A stretch of 64,000 bases of DNA, from sequence record NC_041936.1; one strand, given 5' to 3'. The stretch comes from Escherichia phage ECD7. The notes under the pieces are model-generated. The model was not told the DNA's origin and searched no databases. It saw only the letters and a program-made list of their open reading frames with translations. A program made the translations under genes and the position numbers. Of the stretch, positions 8,092 to 56,423 are shown piece after piece (position 1 is the first letter of the stretch; every line of letters starts with the position of its first letter).

Positions 8092-11000
8092 TTAAAGCGC
8101 CTAGTGTAACTAGCTTGACAATAGAAAAATTGTCTGCTAATCAGGCGTATATCACATGGGATGACGTAGGCGAAAACTTCTTTTATTTTGTGGAGTTAGC
8201 CGAAACCAGAACGCGAGACGGGGAGATCATCCCCGTCGATGAGTTAAGCTGGGTAAACCTGGGATATACTGCCGATCAAAACTGGTTTGAGGATAAAAAC
8301 CTTTTTCCAGAATATTATTACAAGTTTCGTGTAGCAGTAGCCGCAGAAGGATTTGAACAAAGTAAATGGGTTGAGACAGAAGAGTTTCAGACATTTAAAA
8401 CAAACGCATATAATTTTTCTATGATGCGAGAGTTCAACCTTGCAAACGAGTTTATAAAGGAAAAATTTACATACGATAATCGAGAGTATGTCAAGTTTAA
8501 TACTGACCTGATTCAAGCATCATTGATGAAGGAAGATTTTGTCTTTAGTCCTGAATATGCAAACATGACAAATATCTCAAACTACATTGTAGTTGATGAG
8601 AACTTTCATGAAATACAGGATCACATAGAAAAAGTTTGTACTGATATAAACCGCACAATGTTAGCGGAAATGAACGGTGTTTTGTACCTTTTCGAACGGT
8701 TCCAGCCGATCGTGAAAGTGTCAAATGATAAAGGTCAATCATGGAAAGCATACAAGGCTTTTAATGATCGTGTAGGCAATCCGGTTTCCCGCACATGCGT
8801 TTATCAGTCTAAAACCACTACTTACGTTTTAGGATATGACCGAATCTTTTACGGACGACAAGCTAGCGATACTCGATGGAGCGCGGACGATGTTCGATTT
8901 AGTGATGATACGATCACTTTTGCAAAGGTTGGTGACGAGAACGATTTAGGCTTTGATGTTGAGGTCTTTGGTGTATTTTCCAGATTAACAGGTGATACCA
9001 CAAAATACGCCGAAGCTATGGCGTGCAGTGATGACTATTTGTGGGTTGGTGCTAAAGATGTTATTCGCCGGATTCGTCTTAAGAATACTCCTGTTGATAC
9101 CGTACAGGGTTCGCCTACGTTTGGAGAAAAAATATTCGATCCTGATGTTATACGAGTAACAGGAAATGATAAAGCTGTCATTCAGAAAATGGATGTGATC
9201 GACGGTAAATTGCTTGTATTTGTTACGGGTGAAGTTAAACAGCGTTATCAAGATCCAACTAAACCAGAAAACGTTGTTCCGTCAGATGATGCGGGTGTAT
9301 ACTTAATAGGGAGTGATGGTCTGTCTTTTCAGAGAGTATTTGGCAACACTCCGCAGGAAAGGGAATATATTCAGCACGGGTTCAGTAATATGTCAACCAA
9401 TGGTGATGAGGTGTTCATAAGCCATTATAATCATCACTTCGAAAGCATTTTACCTGATCCAGAAACTGCCGCAAAATATGAATTAGGCGAAGCTGTAAAA
9501 TATTCTCAGGAGCCAACTTATCTAACTGATAAGAAAATACATCAAACTACTTTCAGAGCAAGTTATGATGATTTGCGTATTTGGGAGTTAGGACCGCAAG
9601 CGTATTATAACGAGGCTGATTATACATGGATGCGTCGAAACGGTGTCCGTGTGTGGATCACAAATGATAATCGCCCGTTGGTTGTTTATCCAGAGGTTGT
9701 CTATACTCAAGAAGTTGATACATCTGGCATTCTTGACCAAAATAGGGTTAACCGAGAAGTTTATGATAAAGGGACCGTGACCTGTTATCTTAACAATGTT
9801 AAATTTGAAGGATTCAAACAATATGCATCCGGTGTAATGTTCCATAAAAACACAGGAGAGATCATTGGATTCTATCAATTTAATTATCGTGTTCGTGATC
9901 AGGTTGGTGTATATTGGAAACCTACAAATGTAGCATTTGTTGCTGAATTGCAAAATCAGGTTAGAGAGGTTCCCTGGGTTCCGGTTCACTACGATCGAGA
10001 GCAAGATCCAGATTTGCGGCCTTTACTGAATAAGATGACCCCTGATAGCTTTTTACTTGAGAACGAAAATTTCAGAAAATTCTCTGAATATTATCTGCAA
10101 TTCTTAAGCGATGGTTCAGGAACATATTATAATAAACTAAAAAATCTGATTAAAAACAAATATCCACGCGAGAAAGATGCATATGAGTATCTTTGGTCAG
10201 AGATGAACAAACGAAACATCTATGCAGATAAAAACAAGCGAGATGCGGTAGTAAGATTCTTTGAATCCCGCAAATCAGATTTTTATTCCACTAAGGGCGT
10301 GGAGGCTTCTTATAAGTTCTTGTTTAAGTTACTTTATAATGAAGATGTGGAAATTGAGGTTGAATCACAAGCCGGACTAGAGTATGATATTGTTGTTAGT
10401 TCAACGAACATTGACGAGGATATCGTAGGTCGCACGATTTATACTCCAACCGGACGGGCTAACGTGACGTATCTTGAAAGGGAATATGAAGGTGGTCGCC
10501 TACGCTGGCGAGTAACCATTCATAACCTGATCGGGCGGTTCGAAGAAGGTCAAGTGATCAAATCAGAGAAAACAGCGTTTGAAGGGATGATCCTTGTTGG
10601 TGTACGTGGTAAAGAGTTGTTGAGTAGTTCAATCGACTATATCAACCGCTCACGAAGCCAATACACCATGAAGATTAAAAGTGCATTGCCAGTTTCGCGC
10701 TATGCAAATGATGTAATGCGATTCGTTCATCCTGTCGGCTTTGGGTTTATCGGTGTTACCCTGCTTACAATGTTCATTAACAGCGGGTTAAGCATGAAGC
10801 ACACCGAGACTATAATTCAATCTCTGAAAAATTATAAGTTTGACAGCGGATTGCCTAGCGTGTATCCTGATCGGGTGGCAGACCTTGACGTTGACGGAAA
10901 CATTAAGAAAGACCCGCTTACCGGAAAAGCATTATATTTGACTTCACCTTTAATTGGTGAAGAATTTCCGGTTCCTCCTGAATATGATCAGGAGAACAGC

Positions 11001-47316: not shown

Positions 47317-49046
47317 ATGACGCATTAACATCATTTCGCGGGATGCGCAAGGAAGCGGAAGAAAACCCGATTGATAAACTTAACAAATTAGATAAACTTG
47401 ATTCTATTGATAATTTGCAAGCCGCTACCGAATTGGTGGCGGAGACAGTAGAACAAAAATCTAATGAAGTTGTTGGTGCGGTAGAGGATAACACCGCAGC
47501 CAATGAATTGACGGCAGAAAATACACAATCTACCGCTGGCAATACCAAAAAAACTTATGAAGAATTGCAAAAACTCAATAATTTCTCTTCTCAGATGAAT
47601 GAGAAATTACGTGGTTTTGGTGTTATGATGGAACGTAGATTTGGTGTTGTCAGTAAAATGGCTAGCGGTATTGGTGCGATTGAAGAAGCACTGAAAAAAC
47701 CGGAACAACCGCAAACAATGCCATCACCTCAGCCAGTTTTGCCTACTGTACCGGAACAGCCTAATAATGACAACTATCAAGGTCTTCCAAAGAAAAAACC
47801 AGATGTTGAGGAACGGAAGAAAAAGAACGCCACAGATAAGCGTAATGCCGATTCTATGGAAAATCTTCTTAAAGTTGTTCGTGGAGGATTTAAAGAAACC
47901 ATAGGTATCTCTAATAAGGTCTTAGGGATGTTATTTAAGATCACCTTGACCGCTATGGCAGAAGCCGCAAAATGGGGTGCTATTTTGATGGGTATTGTTT
48001 TTGTCATTGATACCCTGATGGTTCATTTCAGATATTGGAGCGATTTATTCGAGACAAAATTCAGTGAATTTATGGATAAAGCCGGAGAATGGGCTGGACC
48101 AATTAGTGATATTCTAACAACTATTCGTCAAGTTCGAGATTATTGGTCTAAAGGCGAATATGGAGAGTTAATTAAATCTCTTGTTATGGGTATTGGTGAT
48201 GCATTCTATAAAACCTTTATCCAACTTGATCGAATTATCACTACTGGTATTGCTAAAATTCTTCGCATGATCCCTGGTATGGGTGATTATGCCGATAAGT
48301 TAGAATACGGTGCTTTAAAGTCTGCTGTCGCTCAAGGCTATACGCCAAATGAAAGAGAACTCGAATTAATGGATAAGGTCGAGTCTGAACATGAAGAAGA
48401 CAAATATGGAGAGCGTACTGGTTGGACCGGAAAAGCCCGTGATATTGGCGAAGCTATTGGGGATTCTATTAAGGATAAAGTTAACGAAGGTCTTGTTAGT
48501 CTGGGCTGGCGAGATCAAAAGGATGTTGACGCAGAGAAACGACAAGAAGAATTAAAACGCGGGGAATATAAGTCTGTTTCTGCTGAACAACGATCTGCTA
48601 GTCGTAAACTTAGAATTAAAAGCGAGGGCGCGATCAATAATATTAATGAAGTTATGGAGAATTTGAGCGGTGACTATGACAAAGAAAGAATGGGAGAGTT
48701 GAAAAAGGATATTGATGTTTACCGTGAGCAAGTTCAAGATCCTACATTAGTTGAAAGTGATCGTTCTCAGTTAGAGCGTCTTATTGAAAAATTTGATGAG
48801 ATGTATGCTGATAAAACTAAGGGTGCGGTTCCAGCTAATCCTGTTCCTGCAACTGAAACGGAAACAGCAAAACAAGCGGAACGTACTGAACAAATGCAGA
48901 AACAAGCTGCAATCCAGCAACAAACGACAAATCAGACCTCAAACGTAAATAATACACAAATTGTAACAAACAATAGAACTGTTAAACAGGGTGCACCAAC
49001 AACTAGAATTGATGCCCCCGGTACAATTAATATGGGGAACTTTTAA
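47313..49046 (+). CDS. 29: tail tape measure / baseplate hub protein gp29
   Basis: 577 aa, synteny. Confidence 0.85.
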   Translation: MNDALTSFRGMRKEAEENPIDKLNKLDKLDSIDNLQAATELVAETVEQKSNEVVGAVEDNTAANELTAENTQSTAGNTKKTYEELQKLNNFSSQMNEKLRGFGVMMERRFGVVSKMASGIGAIEEALKKPEQPQTMPSPQPVLPTVPEQPNNDNYQGLPKKKPDVEERKKKNATDKRNADSMENLLKVVRGGFKETIGISNKVLGMLFKITLTAMAEAAKWGAILMGIVFVIDTLMVHFRYWSDLFETKFSEFMDKAGEWAGPISDILTTIRQVRDYWSKGEYGELIKSLVMGIGDAFYKTFIQLDRIITTGIAKILRMIPGMGDYADKLEYGALKSAVAQGYTPNERELELMDKVESEHEEDKYGERTGWTGKARDIGEAIGDSIKDKVNEGLVSLGWRDQKDVDAEKRQEELKRGEYKSVSAEQRSASRKLRIKSEGAINNINEVMENLSGDYDKERMGELKKDIDVYREQVQDPTLVESDRSQLERLIEKFDEMYADKTKGAVPANPVPATETETAKQAERTEQMQKQAAIQQQTTNQTSNVNNTQIVTNNRTVKQGAPTTRIDAPGTINMGNF

Positions 49047-50104
49047 TGAAAATTAGTGTTATCAATGATGCCGTTGATAGCTTTAAAGCGGGGGTTAAAA
49101 CCTCCGCTGGTTTTACCTCAAAAAATAAAGGGAAAACATTAACCGCTCAATTCCCCGCTGAACGTGCTAGCGGTAATGATGCTAGCGGTTATTATATCAA
49201 CGACTTATATAATAATGGTCTGTTATTCACTGCATACGATTATACATCTCGTACTACTGGATCGTTGCGTGATTTCAGGAAAAAGAAAAATGTTGCTAGC
49301 GGTTTTGGCGGTAGCGTTAATATCGCTGGTTTTGATTTAAATTTGGGAGGGAGAAATGCTGCATTTGACCGCGAGGCAATTGCTAATATTCTTCTTCCTC
49401 GTAGTCAATCTGACGTTGACGCTGCTAGCCATAAGTTTAATGATGTTGGTGAATCTGTCATTTCTCGCGGCGGTGGTACTTTAGGCGGTGCTCTTTCTAA
49501 TATGGCATCTACTGCCGTTTTTGGTGGTATCGAAAGTATTACTGGTGGATACCTTGCCGATCACGGTGAACAGATTTATAATACTGCGCGAAGCATGTAT
49601 GCTGGTGCTGACGCACGAACTAAAAACTACGTATGGCATTTAACCCCACGTAGTATTGAAGACCTTCGCAATATTCTGATCATATACGAAACGTTTTTAG
49701 AATTGTCTTATGGATCTAGTGGTATTTCCAGCACCGCAAAAGAATTAAAAGCGGAAGTTGATGCGTGGTATAAAAATACACTATTGAGAAAATCCACCCC
49801 AGAGGAAGCGAAGAGAAATGATACTCTGTTTGAAGGGATCACCGATTTTCTATCAAACGCAATTACTGTATCTAACCCGACAATATGGATGATCTCTAAC
49901 TTCGGTAAGCGTACATCGTTTGAAGGGCGTAGCGATGCATTTGGTCCCGCTCAGATCTCAAGTGTACGTCTGGACAAGTCGCCGGATGGTAAGTTTAATG
50001 GCCTTGCTATTTCTCCTAACTTGCCGAGTACCTTTGTTCTGGAAGTATCATTTAGAGAGATCTTGACACTTTCCCGTGGTACTATATTTGGGAGTGCGGT
50101 ATAA
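49046..50104 (+). CDS. 48: baseplate tail tube cap protein gp48
   Basis: 352 aa, synteny. Confidence 0.85.
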   Translation: MKISVINDAVDSFKAGVKTSAGFTSKNKGKTLTAQFPAERASGNDASGYYINDLYNNGLLFTAYDYTSRTTGSLRDFRKKKNVASGFGGSVNIAGFDLNLGGRNAAFDREAIANILLPRSQSDVDAASHKFNDVGESVISRGGGTLGGALSNMASTAVFGGIESITGGYLADHGEQIYNTARSMYAGADARTKNYVWHLTPRSIEDLRNILIIYETFLELSYGSSGISSTAKELKAEVDAWYKNTLLRKSTPEEAKRNDTLFEGITDFLSNAITVSNPTIWMISNFGKRTSFEGRSDAFGPAQISSVRLDKSPDGKFNGLAISPNLPSTFVLEVSFREILTLSRGTIFGSAV

Positions 50105-51036
50105 TGTTTGATTTAAATGATTTTAACGAACAAGCCGCTAACCTTGACTTTCAGCGATCCAACTTATTCAGCGTGGCATTTGCCACCACTCCAAGTAATA
50201 AGACACAAGCGATCCTAGAAAGTATGGGCGGTGCGGTATATGATATTATACCAAATGCATTAAATGACTATTTCGGGATTACTCGTGGTGATTATACTGA
50301 CGCATTAACAAATCTTGCTGTACAGGGTGTTAGGCGTGCTGTTGATTCATCCGGTGTCAAAAAGTATCTTTTAGGTGCAATGTCATCCCGCGTAGTTCAA
50401 TCTCTTCTGGGGCAATTTGATGTTGGTACATATGCGCTTGACTGGTTCAATATGGCATATAAGACAAGCGGTCTTCTGGTGTATGCTGTTAAGGTTCCAG
50501 AAAACAGATTGAATTATGAAATGGACCGTAACCACAATGCACCAAACATTCGAATTACCGGACGTGATTTTGATCCGCTTGTGTTGAGCTTTAGAATGGA
50601 CTCTAGCGCATCAAACTATAGAGCAATGCAAGATTGGGTTAACTCAGTAGAAGACCCCGTCACAGGGCTTCGTGCGCTTCCTGTTGACGTTGAAGCGGAT
50701 ATTCAGGTCAACTTACATAACCGAATGGGAGTCCCTCACACGATCATGATGTTTAATGGTTGTGTTCCTGTTGGTGTGAGTGCACCGGAATTAACCTATG
50801 AAAACAACAACGAAATTACAACATTCGATGTTACTTTTGCGTATAGGACTATGCAAACTGGTGCTGTAGGAGAGCAAGCCGCGCGAGAATGGATTGAGGA
50901 TAAGGCAATAAACGCAATAACAAACACTTTCGGCAATAATTTACTTGATAGTGGGTTATCTGCTGCTGGTAATGCTTTATCGCGTCTAAATGGCGTTGGT
51001 GGGCGTGTGGTGAATACTGTCACCAACTGGTTCTAA
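50104..51036 (+). CDS. 54: baseplate tail tube initiator gp54
   Basis: 310 aa, synteny. Confidence 0.85.
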   Translation: MFDLNDFNEQAANLDFQRSNLFSVAFATTPSNKTQAILESMGGAVYDIIPNALNDYFGITRGDYTDALTNLAVQGVRRAVDSSGVKKYLLGAMSSRVVQSLLGQFDVGTYALDWFNMAYKTSGLLVYAVKVPENRLNYEMDRNHNAPNIRITGRDFDPLVLSFRMDSSASNYRAMQDWVNSVEDPVTGLRALPVDVEADIQVNLHNRMGVPHTIMMFNGCVPVGVSAPELTYENNNEITTFDVTFAYRTMQTGAVGEQAAREWIEDKAINAITNTFGNNLLDSGLSAAGNALSRLNGVGGRVVNTVTNWF

Positions 51037-51043
51037 TAAGCGA

Positions 51044-51070
51044 AAGGCGGGGATAATCCCCGCCTTTTTA
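51044..51070 (+). terminator. rho-independent terminator after gene 54 (core GCGGGGA...TCCCCGC)
   Basis: 10-bp stem aaggcgggga/tccccgcctt, 3-nt loop, TTTTTA. Confidence 0.65.
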
Positions 51071-51553
51071 TTTTGCTAAATCATTGCAATATTTTAGTGC
51101 CTTAGTTTGAAATTCTGCGCTGTTAAGTTCTTCATAACGGTCATAATCACCGTTTAATGCTGCCTTTCTTGCTTCTTGCTCTATCTGCATGTCAGACATG
51201 ATAATACAGCGATCCCGCGCTTTCATCTTCTCAAGTTGTATAGACTCTTCTTTCTGCTTGCGCAATTCTTCTTGACGCTTCTTTTCTTCTTGTGCTTTCT
51301 CTTCCCGCGCTTCTTTGATTGCATCCTTGAACATCTGCGTTTGTGGTGCTAAACCAACTTTAACGCGATCCACGTCTCGACGTTCCATTTTAGAAATAAA
51401 GCATGATTCGATCTGATCATCACTTGCATATGCTGCTTTACATTCACGAAGCAAGAAAACCGGATCTGATTTAGCATTCATCATAGCTTCCATGTTGGCA
51501 CAACCAGTAAGCATGAATGCAGCCGCAAGACCAATCAGTTTAATCATTTTCAT
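51068..51553 (-). CDS. lipoprotein (signal peptide with lipobox LTGC), coiled-coil body
   Basis: N-terminus MKMIKLIGLAAAFMLTGC; start overlaps stop of upstream ADP-ribosyltransferase gene (ATGA). Confidence 0.65.
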   Translation of the reverse strand: MKMIKLIGLAAAFMLTGCANMEAMMNAKSDPVFLLRECKAAYASDDQIESCFISKMERRDVDRVKVGLAPQTQMFKDAIKEAREEKAQEEKKRQEELRKQKEESIQLEKMKARDRCIIMSDMQIEQEARKAALNGDYDRYEELNSAEFQTKALKYCNDLAK

Positions 51554-52374
51554 TTAGTCACCTCACCGAAAATTGTAAATTGTCTACGATTCTCATCGCC
51601 GAAAGATTCTACTACGTCGTTTACCTTGACGCAAGTCCCGCGCGGTAAAATTACTTCACATTCGCAAGGGTTCCATGCAATTGACCCAACAACAAAACCT
51701 TTATGATCTTTTACGTCAATTACCCATGATACATTACAAGAATGTTGCATCTTTCCGGTCATTGATTCATATCGATTCTCGCAATAAAGGCTAGTGCTGT
51801 TTGATAGCCATCCTCCAAAGATGATTGGTGTCATGCTGGTTGACACAAAGTTTTTAAAGGTAAATTCCTTATCTTCAATAATACGCTCTATTGTCTGAAT
51901 GTCAAGATGTTGACCGCGATAAAGAGTACCGTTTAACTTTTCGGTTTTATCCATGACACAATCCATCAAATCAACAATCTCTGATATCTCATCGGTCATG
52001 TCTTCTTCCCCTAAGAGAGCACCATTTACCCATTCGTATTGTTCGGACACATAATCACAGATTGCATTATATTCTGCTGGGGTTATGTTGTTATGTTTGT
52101 AATGTTTGAATACATTATCTCCAAAGTCTTCGGAGTGTACTTCATACATCACATTAATGATTTTCTTGACAAATCCATAATCTTGTGTCTCACGCTCAAG
52201 GAAGCGGATAACCTTCACATAATCATCAAAGTTAATCTGATCGCTGATCATCTCAGTGATCATGTAACCATTAATCCCCTCAATGTCATATGTTTCGATG
52301 TAATTATCCATACGTTCCATCATTGATTCGCGTGATTCTTCTGAAAGACGAAAATCCTGTAATTTCTTGAACAT
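51550..52374 (-). CDS. ADP-ribosyltransferase, Alt/Mod-like paralogue (274 aa)
   Basis: R-S-E triad: LYRGQ, FVSTS, CECEVILPRG; closely resembles the C-terminal domain of the adjacent Alt. Confidence 0.7.
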   Translation of the reverse strand: MFKKLQDFRLSEESRESMMERMDNYIETYDIEGINGYMITEMISDQINFDDYVKVIRFLERETQDYGFVKKIINVMYEVHSEDFGDNVFKHYKHNNITPAEYNAICDYVSEQYEWVNGALLGEEDMTDEISEIVDLMDCVMDKTEKLNGTLYRGQHLDIQTIERIIEDKEFTFKNFVSTSMTPIIFGGWLSNSTSLYCENRYESMTGKMQHSCNVSWVIDVKDHKGFVVGSIAWNPCECEVILPRGTCVKVNDVVESFGDENRRQFTIFGEVTK

Positions 52375-52452
52375 TTTAAACCTCCCATATAACAGAAAAC
52401 GGGGCTAGTATAAAACTAGTCCCCGTTTGAGTCAACCATTATTTCTTAAAAA

Positions 52453-54504
52453 TTACATTTTAAATTTATCTGGCATTGCGTCTACAGATACCAGATCAGC
52501 GATAAGCTGACGTAGAGTTGCCTTATCTGCTTTCTTACGTTCGGTTTTAGCTTCGCTAATGAAGCTGGAGAAAGACAGGTCAGAAGCAGGTTTAACAACA
52601 CCCTCACGGATGAATGCATCACCGTCCGCGATCATCTCACCAGATTCTTGTAATGCTGCCAGTTCACTTTTGTTCATAATATGTGCCTCAATGTAATAAG
52701 TTTCTTGTGAATCCGTCGATGCCGTAGCACGAGTTACCGTATCAAAGGATAACACAACACCGCGAGGAAGTAAAATCTCGCATTCTTTGTAAGCAAATGC
52801 TTTGTTACCTACTGGCAATACAGGGATGTTTTCCGCGCCAGCGATAGAGAAAGCAACATTAGCGCCACCTTCACCGCGAGAGCCAGCCATAGAATCAACA
52901 CCAGCAACGGCACTAGCCACGTTTGCATTCCAGCCACCAAAAATATTAGGCGCAAGGGAAGTGCTCACATAGTTTTTAAAGTAAAACGCTTTTTGCTTAC
53001 GTGCAGTTTCCCACATTTGCGACCGGAAGTCCATACCACGATACAGAATAGTACCCGGATCAAGTTTAACACCATAGTTAGAGAAGGCATTATCCAGTGC
53101 ATCGCACATCTTGACCAATTCTTCTGGATCTGCGATTCCCTCAAACTCTTCCAGCTTGCGATCAGTTAGGAAGTTGTTCATATTGATGTATGCTGCATCG
53201 GCATATTCGCTCAACACAAAACCTTCCGCGCCCGGCAGATCAAGATCAATATCTGCCATCATTTCACCCATGTTGCTAGCAATTGCTTCAAACATACCGG
53301 ACGCAACATTACGAAGGGCATCGGTTTTAATCTGGGTGATATGACTACGCAGCATTTCAGCTTTTACATCTGCTGGCATAGACTGGTCTACTCGATCCAT
53401 TGCCAGGGCGGTGATCTTGTTTTCGAATACTTCCTCGCTCATGATTTCTTTTAAGCGTTTGATTGAGGCTGCGATAACTTCCGCAGACAACGGATCATAT
53501 TGATCCTGAACTTTTACCAGTTCGCTTACTGCGTATTTTGCATCGGCTTCGCTTTCAAAAATAGTACGCATGAAACCATAGCGAGTGATAATATCACTTG
53601 TCCAGTCATTCAGAGAACGGGCGGTTGAACGTTCTAAGGCTTGACGGTCAATCAGAGTATTAAACTGTTTCTTAGGTTCGGCTTCGGTGATATCTTCTTC
53701 CGGTTTAAGATTAATTTTTTCTGGATGATTCACGTAGTCGCTGTTATAGGTCGCTTGAGTTTTCAGCATTTCTTCTTTAGTCAAACGAGATTTAGCCGCT
53801 ACGCGTTGTTCTGCTTCCGCGTTTCGTTCTTCTTCTGACACAAGACTAGCCGCATACGCCTCATCTTTAGTCAGAGATTCACCAGTAGCCTTAGATACCC
53901 AGCGATCACCTAAATCACTTTCTACTTTAGTGAACAAGGATTCATCAAGTTTAATCCCTTTAATCTTATCAATCGCCATCCCGCGACGTTTGACAACAAC
54001 TAAAGCGATCTTTTTGCTGGTCATTACTTCCTGCTGGAATACTTCAAACTTCGGTGTACGACGCACCAAACGCTCTATAACGCGCTTAACCAGTTCGGTC
54101 TTACCTTTCATGCGGGATACGTTAAAACGGAACATAACAGCGTCTAATTGCGCTTTACGGGCTGTTTCCATAACCACATCAAAAGCACTTGCCATAACTG
54201 CAATCGGGTTATCACCTAGACCATTTTTAAGCTGTACAATACGACCGCTTTTGTTCATTTCACACAGTACAACGTGTGCGGTCTTGTCACCCATACGAAT
54301 AATTTTAGGTGTTTTGTTGGTGAAGTTGCAAAGACGGACAATCACATCTTTATCGCGTGTCTGTACTGCAAAAAGCTGTTTAGGATTCTGCTTAGGCTTT
54401 AAGCATTGTACCGGAGCAATACTGCCAAAGTTTTCTTCCTCTTCCGTCAACAGCCATTTCTCGAAAGATTCAATCATTAGATCGTCGATTTCTAAGTTAA
54501 ACAT
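52453..54504 (-). CDS. alt: Alt ADP-ribosyltransferase (head-packaged)
   Basis: 683 aa (T4 Alt ~682); C-terminal ILYRGMDF...YVSTSLAP...ECEILLPRG. Confidence 0.85.
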   Translation of the reverse strand: MFNLEIDDLMIESFEKWLLTEEEENFGSIAPVQCLKPKQNPKQLFAVQTRDKDVIVRLCNFTNKTPKIIRMGDKTAHVVLCEMNKSGRIVQLKNGLGDNPIAVMASAFDVVMETARKAQLDAVMFRFNVSRMKGKTELVKRVIERLVRRTPKFEVFQQEVMTSKKIALVVVKRRGMAIDKIKGIKLDESLFTKVESDLGDRWVSKATGESLTKDEAYAASLVSEEERNAEAEQRVAAKSRLTKEEMLKTQATYNSDYVNHPEKINLKPEEDITEAEPKKQFNTLIDRQALERSTARSLNDWTSDIITRYGFMRTIFESEADAKYAVSELVKVQDQYDPLSAEVIAASIKRLKEIMSEEVFENKITALAMDRVDQSMPADVKAEMLRSHITQIKTDALRNVASGMFEAIASNMGEMMADIDLDLPGAEGFVLSEYADAAYINMNNFLTDRKLEEFEGIADPEELVKMCDALDNAFSNYGVKLDPGTILYRGMDFRSQMWETARKQKAFYFKNYVSTSLAPNIFGGWNANVASAVAGVDSMAGSRGEGGANVAFSIAGAENIPVLPVGNKAFAYKECEILLPRGVVLSFDTVTRATASTDSQETYYIEAHIMNKSELAALQESGEMIADGDAFIREGVVKPASDLSFSSFISEAKTERKKADKATLRQLIADLVSVDAMPDKFKM

Positions 54505-54537
54505 TTTATATCCTCTAGTTGATAACCTATAAACCTA

Positions 54538-54545
54538 TATTTATG
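54538..54545 (-). promoter_or_regulatory. late-promoter-like CATAAATA upstream of alt
   Basis: 7/8 match to TATAAATA on minus strand, 34 nt upstream of alt ATG. Confidence 0.3.
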
Positions 54546-54570
54546 AAAAAGGGGCTTAACGCCCCCTTTT
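54546..54570 (-). terminator. hairpin terminator (aaaaaggggc-ttaac-gcccccttttt)
   Basis: GC stem flanked by A5 and T5; follows gene 54572..54784. Confidence 0.55.
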
Positions 54571-54571
54571 A

Positions 54572-54784
54572 TTATAATGCACCATCAAGCAATTGCTCTA
54601 AGGTGTATCCTGAATAGTCTTTTTCAATCAGGATATATTTTCCTACTCGTTTAATCCAACCGCGCATTTCAACGTATTCTGCGTAGTTGATGGTGCGAGT
54701 TGTTCCATCTTCCAGTAATGCAGTACCGATTTCGTTGATGCGGTCATAAGTTACGTCGGTAATGATGATTTCGATGTTAGCCAT
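54572..54784 (-). CDS. hypothetical small protein (70 aa from ATG 54784)
   Basis: Begins MANIE like the product of 56662..56913; track ORF has 17-codon extension from a GTG. Confidence 0.5.
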   Translation of the reverse strand: MANIEIIITDVTYDRINEIGTALLEDGTTRTINYAEYVEMRGWIKRVGKYILIEKDYSGYTLEQLLDGAL

Positions 54785-54857: not shown

Positions 54858-55376
54858 TTAGTTATTTTTTAATTGCTCATCTTGCAATAGGGCAATCACA
54901 TGCTGGCGATGTTCTTCCGATTGAGGCACACCGAAAAAGTTTGTTTTGTAGAAATACTCTAATCGGTCTTCTCGTGTGCTCTCTTCCATCATGATCGCGG
55001 GTAGTCCGAGATTTCGGAAACGTCGCTTTTCTGCTGGCGTAAAATCACTGTAATACAGCATATAATCATCATTACCAGCAATGCTAAACTCATCCTTCAT
55101 GAAAGAGAATATTGCGTTTAAACGCTGTTTACCGTCCACGATTTCGATTTCATAGCGAGAGCCATCATCAATCTTAGCCATTGCGATAGCACCAACCGGA
55201 AAATCATTAATCAGGTTTTCGATAAACATACGTTTGTTTTCTGTGTCCCATACCAAAGGACGCTGATAATCTGGGTTCATGTTGATATAGCCATCTTCTA
55301 ACCATGCTTCGTAAACAGAGATGACAAAGTTTTTAGTATTGGTATAGTAACGGCGTTTAGGCGTTAAACGGTTCAT
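54858..55376 (-). CDS. DUF262/ParB-like nuclease-superfamily protein (172 aa from ATG 55376)
   Basis: Motifs DYQRPLVW and IVDGKQRLNAI; start has GGAG SD and abuts upstream stop. Confidence 0.55.
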   Translation of the reverse strand: MNRLTPKRRYYTNTKNFVISVYEAWLEDGYINMNPDYQRPLVWDTENKRMFIENLINDFPVGAIAMAKIDDGSRYEIEIVDGKQRLNAIFSFMKDEFSIAGNDDYMLYYSDFTPAEKRRFRNLGLPAIMMEESTREDRLEYFYKTNFFGVPQSEEHRQHVIALLQDEQLKNN

Positions 55377-55377
55377 A

Positions 55378-55707
55378 TTATAGTCTCCTGAATGGATCAT
55401 CACGTAAATCAATATCTTTTAAGAACTCATCCCATGAATGGCGGATATTGTTCTTAATTCTCCAGATAAGCGCAGGGATTGAACGCTCTCCCATCTGGAA
55501 GTAAGGATCATATGATCCGTATGCCCAATATGCTACTACAATTCCACAATCAGCGCAATAGTATTCTATTTCACTTGCTGGCGACCAAAGTCCATCAATA
55601 TGATCAGTGATCTTGCTTTCGATGTTATGGCTATGACAATCAGGGCAACGGATGCAATGACCTTGTTTATCGTAATTTGACGTTAGAGAATACTTAAACA
55701 ATCTCAT
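55378..55707 (-). CDS. small zinc-ribbon protein (109 aa)
   Basis: CIRCPDCH ... CADCG Cys pairs. Confidence 0.55.
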   Translation of the reverse strand: MRLFKYSLTSNYDKQGHCIRCPDCHSHNIESKITDHIDGLWSPASEIEYYCADCGIVVAYWAYGSYDPYFQMGERSIPALIWRIKNNIRHSWDEFLKDIDLRDDPFRRL

Positions 55708-56423
55708 TATAGATCCTTATTGGCTTCAAATACTGCCTTTGCGAATCCTCGCGGCGTAAGTGACCTGATAGTCTTTGTTCTGGTTCCTTTCCCGCCTAGC
55801 TTAGAATGCTGTTTGCTGTACCCTTTATTAATCTGCAACGGTTTCTTTTCTGGCATTATAAAGCCTTGTCCGGTCCATAAGCAAGTCTTTTTCGGGTACA
55901 TATCACGGGCGGCAATATACTCAGGAAACGTAGGATGCTTATCATCTTCCGGCAAATAACCGCCATATTCCCACGGATGGAACATGTAATCAGGCTTACG
56001 CCACATACTAGAGATAACGCTTACAGGATTCTCTATCATATAGGGAACTCCTAGCCATTCACCCAAATAAGCGGTTATTTTAGCTGCCCGTACATCATGA
56101 ACTTGAATCAATGGTCCTTGTTCTCGTTTCTTTCGTTCAAAGTGTGCAGCGCCACTAACAGCTAAATTGGTGCACGGTGGGAATGCAAATATAATATCCG
56201 GTTTCCCCCATTCAAGGTCCATTGCTCTTTCCAGCCAGTTCAAATCAATCCAGGTGTTTACATAGGTAATGTTTGGATGTTCAAATCTGGTATTATACTT
56301 TTTGTATGTACCGTGGTCGGCGTCATCCGCATTAAAGCAGACTACCTTATGACCTGCTTTAGCCCATTCTAGCCCCATTATCCCCGATCCGTCAAAGTTG
56401 CAGAATATTAATTTTTGTTTCAT
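55707..56423 (-). CDS. C5-cytosine methyltransferase-like protein (238 aa)
   Basis: FDGSGIMG (motif I-like), FAFPPCTNLAVSG (PC motif IV-like), MIENPVS (ENV motif VI-like); shorter than typical C5-MTases. Confidence 0.5.
   Translation of the reverse strand: MKQKLIFCNFDGSGIMGLEWAKAGHKVVCFNADDADHGTYKKYNTRFEHPNITYVNTWIDLNWLERAMDLEWGKPDIIFAFPPCTNLAVSGAAHFERKKREQGPLIQVHDVRAAKITAYLGEWLGVPYMIENPVSVISSMWRKPDYMFHPWEYGGYLPEDDKHPTFPEYIAARDMYPKKTCLWTGQGFIMPEKKPLQINKGYSKQHSKLGGKGTRTKTIRSLTPRGFAKAVFEANKDL

Follow-up and report, generated by a model that had tools for sequence, protein, structure and literature searches.

In phage T4, the slot between alt, the gene of the ADP-ribosyltransferase Alt, and gene 54 is occupied by alt.-1 and alt.-2, which are annotated as remnants of a duplicated first part of alt, and also by alt.-3. 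Dhakavirus MX01 carries three full-length alt paralogues in tandem in this slot, and Aeromonas phage Riv-10 carries two. RB49ORF183c of phage RB49, 44RRORF188c and T4 alt.-1/alt.-2 were described as paralogous duplications of alt by Nolan et al. 2006 (PMC1524935). The subject of this report is the same slot in Escherichia phage ECD7, as contained in a stretch of 64,000 nucleotides (sequence record NC_041936.1; hereafter the window), in which two adjacent genes encode a 274-residue stand-alone ADP-ribosyltransferase (RB49ORF183c / phi1p183) and a 161-residue lipoprotein precursor (RB49ORF182c / phi1p182). The transferase is not new, since it is the alt paralogue described in 2006 as RB49ORF183c.

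An earlier reading of the letters of the window alone (the sequence-only reading) had placed these two open reading frames (ORFs) directly 3' of alt, joined by an ATGA stop/start overlap, and both are found there, on the minus strand. It had also regarded the pairing of a transferase with a lipoprotein as unexpected. We favor, with a probability of roughly 0.6, the view that the slot between alt and gene 54 holds a two-gene unit with unrelated products, which would work in different compartments and would be linked by transcription rather than by joint function. Our best guess for the products is an early cytoplasmic arginine-specific ADP-ribosyltransferase and an unrelated lipoprotein of the envelope or of superinfection exclusion.

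The window belongs to Krischvirus, a group of T4-type phages that resemble RB49, infect E. coli and Shigella and are known as 'pseudo-T-even'. Over its positions 50900-54600, phage Cognac shows 99.1% identity, and the value for Phi1, RB49 and 54 further records is 98.5-98.9%; all of these phages are Krischvirus. Both genes had already been annotated: the Phi1 annotation lists phi1p183 as 'ADP-ribosyltransferase' and phi1p182 as 'hypothetical protein', a note in the RB49p183 record reads 'similar to C-terminal part of T4 Alt', and the record of phage W115 describes the 161-residue ORF as a 'putative lipoprotein', annotated with LipoP. Beyond the 2006 genome comparison, a literature search found no paper on these ORFs and none on exclusion in Krischvirus.

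Transcription signals

The 78 nt between alt and the transferase gene contain a hairpin followed by UUUUC, which is read as the intrinsic terminator of alt (coordinates of all features are given in Table 1). A sigma-70-type promoter, TTGACT-17-TATACT, overlaps this hairpin, the loop of which forms the -10 element together with the 3' arm. For RB49, Nolan et al. 2006 (PMC1524935) predicted early promoter Pe:112388 at this site, with a weak hidden Markov model (HMM) score of 9.3, and the GEC-3S record carries a promoter annotation there. Uncultured relatives, with transferase identities of no more than 29-62%, keep the promoter as TTGACA-17-TATACT (with TAGAAT in lineage L024). In an alignment that included four relatives with transferases ~40-62% identical, five lineages share the hairpin, and two of its stem pairs show compensatory changes. 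The upstream promoter is missing in lineage L026. The conserved placement of a promoter within a terminator is a new observation.

On the minus strand between positions 50900 and 54700, the only late-promoter-like motif is CATAAATA at 54545..54538, just upstream of alt; no TATAAATA-like late-promoter motif was found upstream of the transferase/lipoprotein pair in this interval. The highest-scoring 'late promoter' of RB49 in the list of Nolan et al. 2006 (PMC1524935) is located inside the transferase ORF (RB49 112023-112065). The corresponding 43-mer of the window (52084-52126, minus strand) does not contain a TATAAATA-like sequence, and the prediction was not reproduced. From the conserved arrangement of promoter and terminator we infer a two-gene early unit that would be expressed separately from the late, packaged Alt.

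A further promoter-like motif, TTGACA-16-TATTAT, which comes close to the sigma-70 consensus, is found inside the transferase ORF. It reads TTGACA-16-TATAAT in lineage L020 and TTGACG-16-TATTAT in L026 and is not kept in four other lineages; promoter-like matches in the region numbered 13, as compared with 10.6 expected from shuffles. This motif, the status of which is uncertain, could drive a lipoprotein transcript independent of the transferase, or it could reflect the codons of L-D-I ... R-I-I.

The 274-residue transferase

Regarding the protein families, the 274-residue protein matched Pfam PF03496 (ADPrib_exo_Tox) over residues 82-266 with 59.3 bits (cut-off 23.4; E=4.3e-16) and PHROG 15144 ('ADP-ribosyltransferase') from end to end, and it aligned to positions 330-602 of the 674-position PHROG 802 Alt profile (E=3e-45). 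The full-length Alt of the window matched PHROG 802 with E=6e-180 and is annotated as alt in Phi1, RB49 and GEC-3S. In BLASTP comparisons, the short protein showed an identity of 37% to the window Alt over 109 residues (E=1e-16) and of 31% to residues 413-593 of T4 Alt over 181 residues (E=3e-23), and no significant match to T4 ModA or ModB; membership of the Mod family was rejected on this ground. The strong similarity to Alt that had been claimed for the protein is thus real, but it is moderate and confined to the catalytic half.

The sequence-only reading had further recognized a second Alt-like ADP-ribosyltransferase with the full R-S-E triad, and here the family searches and the motifs bear it out. 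The catalytic residues lie in LYRGQ (R153), FVSTS (S178-T179-S180) and CECEVILPRG (E238 and E240), and the set is invariant in nine aligned sequences, which include the window Alt and relatives down to 23% identity. In this class of enzymes, the E-x-E form goes with arginine specificity, and because of this motif the protein is predicted to be an arginine-specific mono-ADP-ribosyltransferase. An AlphaFold2 model of the protein (mean predicted local distance difference test (pLDDT) 82, predicted template modeling score (pTM) 0.78) retrieved Certhrax, Vis, C3 and iota/CDTa in Foldseek searches at E=1.7e-10 to 1e-8, so that the expected ADP-ribosyltransferase fold was recovered (E ~1e-10 to Vis, C3 and Certhrax). 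With these bacterial R-S-E toxins the phage protein shares the predicted fold (Foldseek probability 1.0, template modeling score ~0.6 when target-normalized) and the catalytic motifs, but it is only 13-20% identical to them, has no secretion or translocation partner and carries an extra N-terminal helical region of ~60 residues.

Judged from the alignments, the 274-residue protein is a truncated Alt paralogue, which has kept the central helical region and the catalytic domain of Alt and has lost an N-terminal part of ~330 residues and a C-terminal tail of ~80 residues. Among precomputed Pfam hits, the Alt N-terminal domain PF26846 occurs on Alts of 660-683 residues and never on the short proteins, which show PF03496 only; the C-terminal tail is missing from the 274-residue proteins in the alignment. 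The ratio of nonsynonymous to synonymous divergence (dN/dS) of the transferase gene is 0.054 relative to a 97%-identical relative; a pseudogene or decaying remnant was rejected on the grounds of this value and of the invariant catalytic residues. Both ORFs are regarded as real genes rather than chance ORFs because of the low dN/dS values (0.12 for the lipoprotein) and because both genes are retained in all related contigs examined.

The homologous catalytic domain with its R / S-T-S / E-x-E set is a feature in common with T4 Alt and the tandem paralogues (T4 alt.-1/alt.-2, 44RR ORF187c/188c and the triple alt of MX01), as are, for the T4-like tandem paralogues, the position between alt and gene 54 and the origin by alt duplication. 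The T4 remnants alt.-1/alt.-2 themselves, however, keep the opposite, N-terminal part of Alt and have no catalytic domain, so that the earlier statement that T4 has no ADP-ribosyltransferase at this position is half right: the catalytic domain is absent there, but remnants of alt are present. The 274-residue protein differs from Alt in that it corresponds to the C-terminal half only and in that a separate sigma-70 promoter takes the place of the late one; it is probably not packaged. It resembles the early, stand-alone T4 enzymes ModA and ModB (~200 residues) in being a small stand-alone R-S-E enzyme with an apparently early promoter, but differs from them in locus and evolutionary origin as well as in the lack of detectable sequence similarity. 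Krischvirus Phi1 has a single ModB homologue, phi1p014 (167 residues, 33% identical to T4 ModB; positions 9096-9599 of locus L027, minus strand), which is located beside srd, and no modA was found in Phi1. With Alt, the ModB homologue and the 274-residue protein, the phage would have three transferases, as in T4.

The 161-residue lipoprotein

The N-terminus of the lipoprotein, MKMIKLIGLAAAFM-LTG-C18, combines a positively charged N-region and a hydrophobic core with LTGC as lipobox, in agreement with the pattern [LVI][ASTVI][GAS]C and a Cys at positions 15-35. Its signal, MKMIKLIGLAAAFMLTGC, satisfies a PROSITE-type lipobox rule. Of the 53 family members, 48 satisfy this rule as well, four deviate by an Asn at -2, and the remaining one is a gene call that was truncated; L15, G17 and C18 are invariant in the family alignment. 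For RB49ORF182c, a SignalP call covering residues 1-20 was reported by Nolan et al. 2006 (PMC1524935). Export and lipidation at Cys18 are therefore predicted for the 161-residue protein; the lipobox, with its predicted signal-peptidase II site, agrees with the sequence-only reading, which had called a lipoprotein overlapping the transferase by ATGA. Position +2 is taken by A, S, T or V in 49 representatives and never by Asp, and because Asp does not occur at this position the lipoprotein is probably sorted to the outer membrane by the +2 rule.

Four Cys residues are present in the mature protein of 47 of the 49 representatives, with C38, C51, C116 and C156 invariant, which fits periplasmic disulfides. 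An AlphaFold2 model (pLDDT 87) is all-helical and contains a continuous helix from residue 72 to 133. In the model, the architecture is that of an N-terminal helical subdomain (C38, C51), a central charged helix and a C-terminal helical subdomain (C116, C156), and we propose that two disulfide-stabilized helical subdomains are separated by a charged single helix. The central segment consists to 82% of E/K/R/Q/A/D and to 15% of hydrophobic residues. Where a charged coiled coil had been suggested, this composition is more like that of a Glu/Lys/Arg-rich (ER/K-type) single helix; the length of the helix differs between alleles. Lys is the last residue of the protein in 45 of the family's 49 cluster representatives and Asn in the remaining four, although these counts are not phylogenetically independent.

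The lipoprotein is assigned to PHROG 16112 (function unknown). Nothing informative was found in Pfam, NCBIfam, PADLOC or the PDB, the last by both sequence and fold searches, and in the BFVD viral structure library the lipoprotein matched its own family only. An exhaustive profile search of 1.84 billion protein representatives yielded 11 clusters in the family, and each context read showed the order alt, short transferase, lipoprotein, convergent gp54. Scans of IMG/VR yielded one Krischvirus contig, and one further scan was without a confirmed hit. The lipoprotein family is thus a tiny orphan family confined to this slot of the RB49-like phages; this very narrow distribution is a new observation. 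Searches for lipoboxes and for imm and sp were made in the Phi1 genome with the window in place of its middle, and the 161-residue lipoprotein was the only non-spanin lipobox ORF in this sequence.

Cassette exchange of the lipoprotein gene

Phage E26 matches the window at 100% in the transferase, in Alt and in gp48 and at 99% in gp54, whereas its lipoprotein shows an identity of ~30% (BLAST local alignment). Likewise, gp48 and gp54 of contig L013 are 99% identical and its lipoprotein 30%. The lipoproteins of E26 and Whisky are 27-28% identical to that of the window, while their transferases are essentially identical to it (rounding to 100%). The trees of the two proteins are incongruent: all Krischvirus transferases form one cluster of 96-100% identity, whereas the Krischvirus lipoproteins fall into two deep clades that are ~27% identical (global alignment), and a distant lineage clusters with one of these clades.

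The recombination junctions are sharp, and nucleotide alignment placed them in the signal-peptide region and in the terminator, the bidirectional terminator shared with gene 54 being the downstream junction in E26. Whisky and JK32 have lipoproteins with the same body and different signal peptides, and the lipoprotein of L014 resembles that of Whisky in its N-terminal part and that of E26 in its C-terminal subdomain. Synonymous divergence (dS) is 0.90 in the lipoprotein gene versus 0.20 in the adjacent transferase gene. Strong positive selection on the lipoprotein was rejected, given its dN/dS of 0.12 with high dS; for the same reason, its diversity is attributed to old alleles that appear to have been moved by recombination under purifying selection. 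The exchange of the lipoprotein gene as a cassette with deep, mosaic allele classes is a new observation.

Separately, gp48 and gp54 of Whisky and JK32 (loci L005 and L006; window 49046-51036) are only 75% and 87% identical to those of the window, beside Alt and transferase sequences that are 98-100% identical; a second mosaic boundary is therefore placed at the same convergent terminator.

Relationship between the two genes

According to the reading favored here, the first gene would be transcribed early from a separate sigma-70 promoter, which is part of the hairpin that terminates alt, and because of this promoter its product is thought to be made in the cell early, like T4 ModA/ModB, instead of being carried in the capsid like Alt. 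The product of the second gene would be exported, lipidated at Cys18 and probably transferred to the outer membrane, and it would most likely act in the periplasm early in infection, for instance by excluding superinfecting phages or by altering the envelope in some other way. Several points weigh against this account. The early timing is read from motifs only, and the RB49 promoter has an HMM score of 9.3, as compared with ~30-39 for typical early promoters. As lineage L026 is without the upstream promoter, read-through from alt is possible, and leakage of the alt terminator could add late expression. The tight juxtaposition of the two genes, kept across deep divergence, could reflect an unseen functional link. 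Finally, the exclusion role of the lipoprotein is drawn by analogy only, and the PHROG 'Cor' match (E=0.0074) covers residues 1-45, the signal peptide.

It is very unlikely that the two genes form a functional module, in which the lipoprotein would serve the transferase as immunity protein or antidote, as chaperone, as a partner for membrane targeting or as substrate, with translational coupling to set the stoichiometry. ADP-ribosyltransferase toxins are often paired with a cognate immunity gene, and a weak sequence match of the transferase to the effector Tre1 recalls such toxins; in addition, all lipoprotein family members found are located directly downstream of a short transferase, with a junction that is always tight (from an 8-nt overlap to a 1-nt gap in relatives). 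The family is restricted to one syntenic clade, however, so that the co-occurrence is not independent evidence, and the ATGA overlap does not indicate a functional pair because 21 of the 68 co-directional neighbor pairs in the window overlap, six of them by the same 4 bases, and because the lipoprotein gene has its own Shine-Dalgarno sequence. The lipoprotein has an export signal, a lipobox and four Cys of the periplasmic type, whereas the transferase has no signal peptide. Moreover, an essentially identical transferase occurs with partners that are 27% identical and located in a different compartment, which disfavors a physical or immunity relationship and speaks against co-evolution of the two proteins. 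With products in different compartments and allele swaps that leave the transferase unchanged, a toxin-immunity or other physical pairing was given up as the leading idea, and a functional pairing of the two genes is not supported. A second packaged and injected transferase, expressed late when transcription of alt reads through and then incorporated into the capsid, is likewise an unlikely identity for the 274-residue protein. Its derivation from Alt, the leakiness of many terminators in T4-type phages and the lack of a separate promoter in L026 speak for such a role, as do RLSE sequences (Leu-x-Glu type) in its N-terminus, which we take to resemble prohead-protease sites; yet it has neither the N-terminal domain nor the C-terminal tail of Alt, and its gene has a conserved sigma-70 promoter of its own and no late-promoter motif. 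The pairing is best read as the co-transcription of two unrelated early functions.

Possible roles of the lipoprotein

No homologues of imm and sp were found by tblastn in the Phi1 sequence containing the window. A role as superinfection-exclusion factor is plausible by analogy, and a periplasmic exclusion or envelope factor is the best guess because the lipoprotein is early-type, probably located in the outer membrane and allelically diverse, and because Imm and Sp were not detected. Like T5 Llp, phi80/N15 Cor and T4 Sp/Imm, the 161-residue protein appears to be an early-type exported envelope protein of a virulent phage, in which their role may be vacant. Unlike Llp and Cor, to which it has no sequence or fold relation, it is much larger and all-helical with a charged spacer helix; compared with exclusion lipoproteins, it is unlinked to receptor-binding genes and does not co-vary with gp38. 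A more elaborate proposal, which is tentative and to which we give rather little credence, is that the lipoprotein is an exclusion or envelope-remodeling factor of the RB49-like phages that replaces the undetected Imm and Sp; it would be anchored in the outer membrane, its conserved C-terminal subdomain would be held at the peptidoglycan by the rigid charged helix, and its interchangeable N-terminal modules would set the exclusion groups of phages that circulate together. Cross-linking to the peptidoglycan via the C-terminal Lys, as in Braun's lipoprotein, is speculative; the comparison is drawn because of the frequent terminal Lys and the long helix.

Two more specific alternatives to a general exclusion or envelope factor were considered. 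Precedents exist in T5 Llp, Cor and the Rtp factor binding LptD for lipoproteins that mask a receptor, and an Llp/Cor-type protein that binds, from the periplasmic side, the outer-membrane receptor used by the phage itself would block re-infection and save progeny from loss on cell debris. The probably early expression and outer-membrane location would suit this role, and the allelic diversity is as expected for variable targets. We nevertheless hold it to be quite improbable: the lipoprotein resembles Llp and Cor neither in sequence nor in fold (PHROG; fold searches of the PDB and BFVD), and its gene lies ~67 kb from gene 38 in Phi1, not beside the receptor-binding genes. By their identity to Phi1, the gp38 adhesins of Krischvirus are divided into a class of at least 95% and a class of ~82%. 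The lipoprotein alleles A (RB49), B (E26) and C (Whisky) occur in each class, with the non-A alleles split 3 versus 4 and the A alleles ~9 versus 10; receptor masking matched to gp38 was rejected in view of this lack of association. The remaining alternative, which we consider the least credible of those presented here, is a component of lysis or envelope architecture, be it spanin-like, an accessory of lysis inhibition or a mimic of Braun's lipoprotein with a cross-linked C-terminal Lys. It could draw on the outer-membrane-type anchor, the helix of ~60 residues and the Lys terminus in 45 of 49 representatives, and since the phage has rI and t, lysis inhibition probably exists. Against it stand the Asn terminus of four lineages, the phylogenetic non-independence of the Lys count, the early-type promoter, and a helical, charged protein that is neither rich in proline nor provided with a membrane segment at its C-terminus. 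Spanin identity was rejected, as the phage already has the spanins PseT.2/PseT.3 elsewhere, PseT.2 carrying the other lipobox, and as the C-terminal hydrophobic segment is missing.

Feature coordinates and neighboring genes

The features of the locus are compiled in Table 1. The terminator between the lipoprotein gene and gene 54 corresponds to the one listed as '54-><-RB49ORF182c' by Nolan et al. 2006 (PMC1524935).

Table 1. Features of the alt to gene 54 region, in window positions
Feature	Position	Strand	Remarks
Gene 54 (baseplate tail-tube initiator)	50104..51036	+	Convergent neighbor, bounds the slot
Bidirectional intrinsic terminator of the lipoprotein gene and convergent gene 54	51042..51068	both	Window sequence
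161-residue lipoprotein precursor ORF (RB49ORF182c / phi1p182)	51068..51553	-	
Codon of the predicted lipid-bearing Cys18	51502..51500	-	Predicted signal peptide, residues 1-17
ATGA stop/start overlap of the 274- and 161-residue ORFs	51550..51553	-	Read from sequence
274-residue stand-alone ADP-ribosyltransferase ORF (RB49ORF183c / phi1p183)	51550..52374	-	
Shine-Dalgarno sequence GAGGTG of the lipoprotein gene	51564..51559	-	Within the 3' end of the transferase gene
Catalytic codons of the transferase	R153 51918..51916; S178-S180 51843..51835; E238-E240 51663..51655	-	
Promoter-like motif TTGACA-16-TATTAT, status uncertain	51878..51905	-	Inside the transferase ORF, ~330 nt before the lipoprotein start
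Shine-Dalgarno sequence GGGAGG of the transferase gene	52381..52386	-	6 nt before the start codon, read from sequence
Hairpin 3' of alt, followed by UUUUC	52397..52428	-	-18.9 kcal/mol, z=-5.1 versus shuffles
Sigma-70-type promoter TTGACT-17-TATACT	52407..52435	-	-35 at 52435..52430, -10 at 52412..52407
alt, full-length Alt ADP-ribosyltransferase, 683 residues	52453..54504	-	Directly upstream of the 274-residue ORF

Just upstream of alt, the window contains an ORF of ~172-184 residues that is DUF262/GmrSD_N-like (54858-55412, minus strand) and a DNA methyltransferase ORF (55707-56423, minus strand). A phage-borne protein with the N-terminal domain of GmrSD may bear on DNA modification or anti-restriction biology. 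In Phi1, the gp38 adhesin gene (positions 44989-45765 of L027, minus strand) is found among ORFs of the early region, ~100 kb from genes 34-37, while in T4 it is located beside gene 37.

Implications

The transferase adds little in itself, being one more Alt paralogue known since 2006. As a natural stand-alone catalytic module of Alt apart from the capsid, it could nevertheless help to sort the targets of the Alt family. Of the two, the lipoprotein is more useful as a lead: it is the sole non-spanin lipoprotein in the sequence searched, in which no Imm or Sp homologue was detected, it belongs to a tiny orphan family, and its gene is exchanged as a cassette. Cassette exchange with deep allele classes is what is typically seen in genes that take part in conflicts between phages or between phage and host. 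If the lipoprotein is an exclusion factor, it would bear on the triggering of lysis inhibition in T4-type phages without Imm and Sp, and with allelic specificity it would represent a class of exclusion proteins that is new for T4-type phages. Allele-specific exclusion would also matter for the composition of therapeutic cocktails with Krischvirus, as many of the 57 matching isolates are candidates for therapy.

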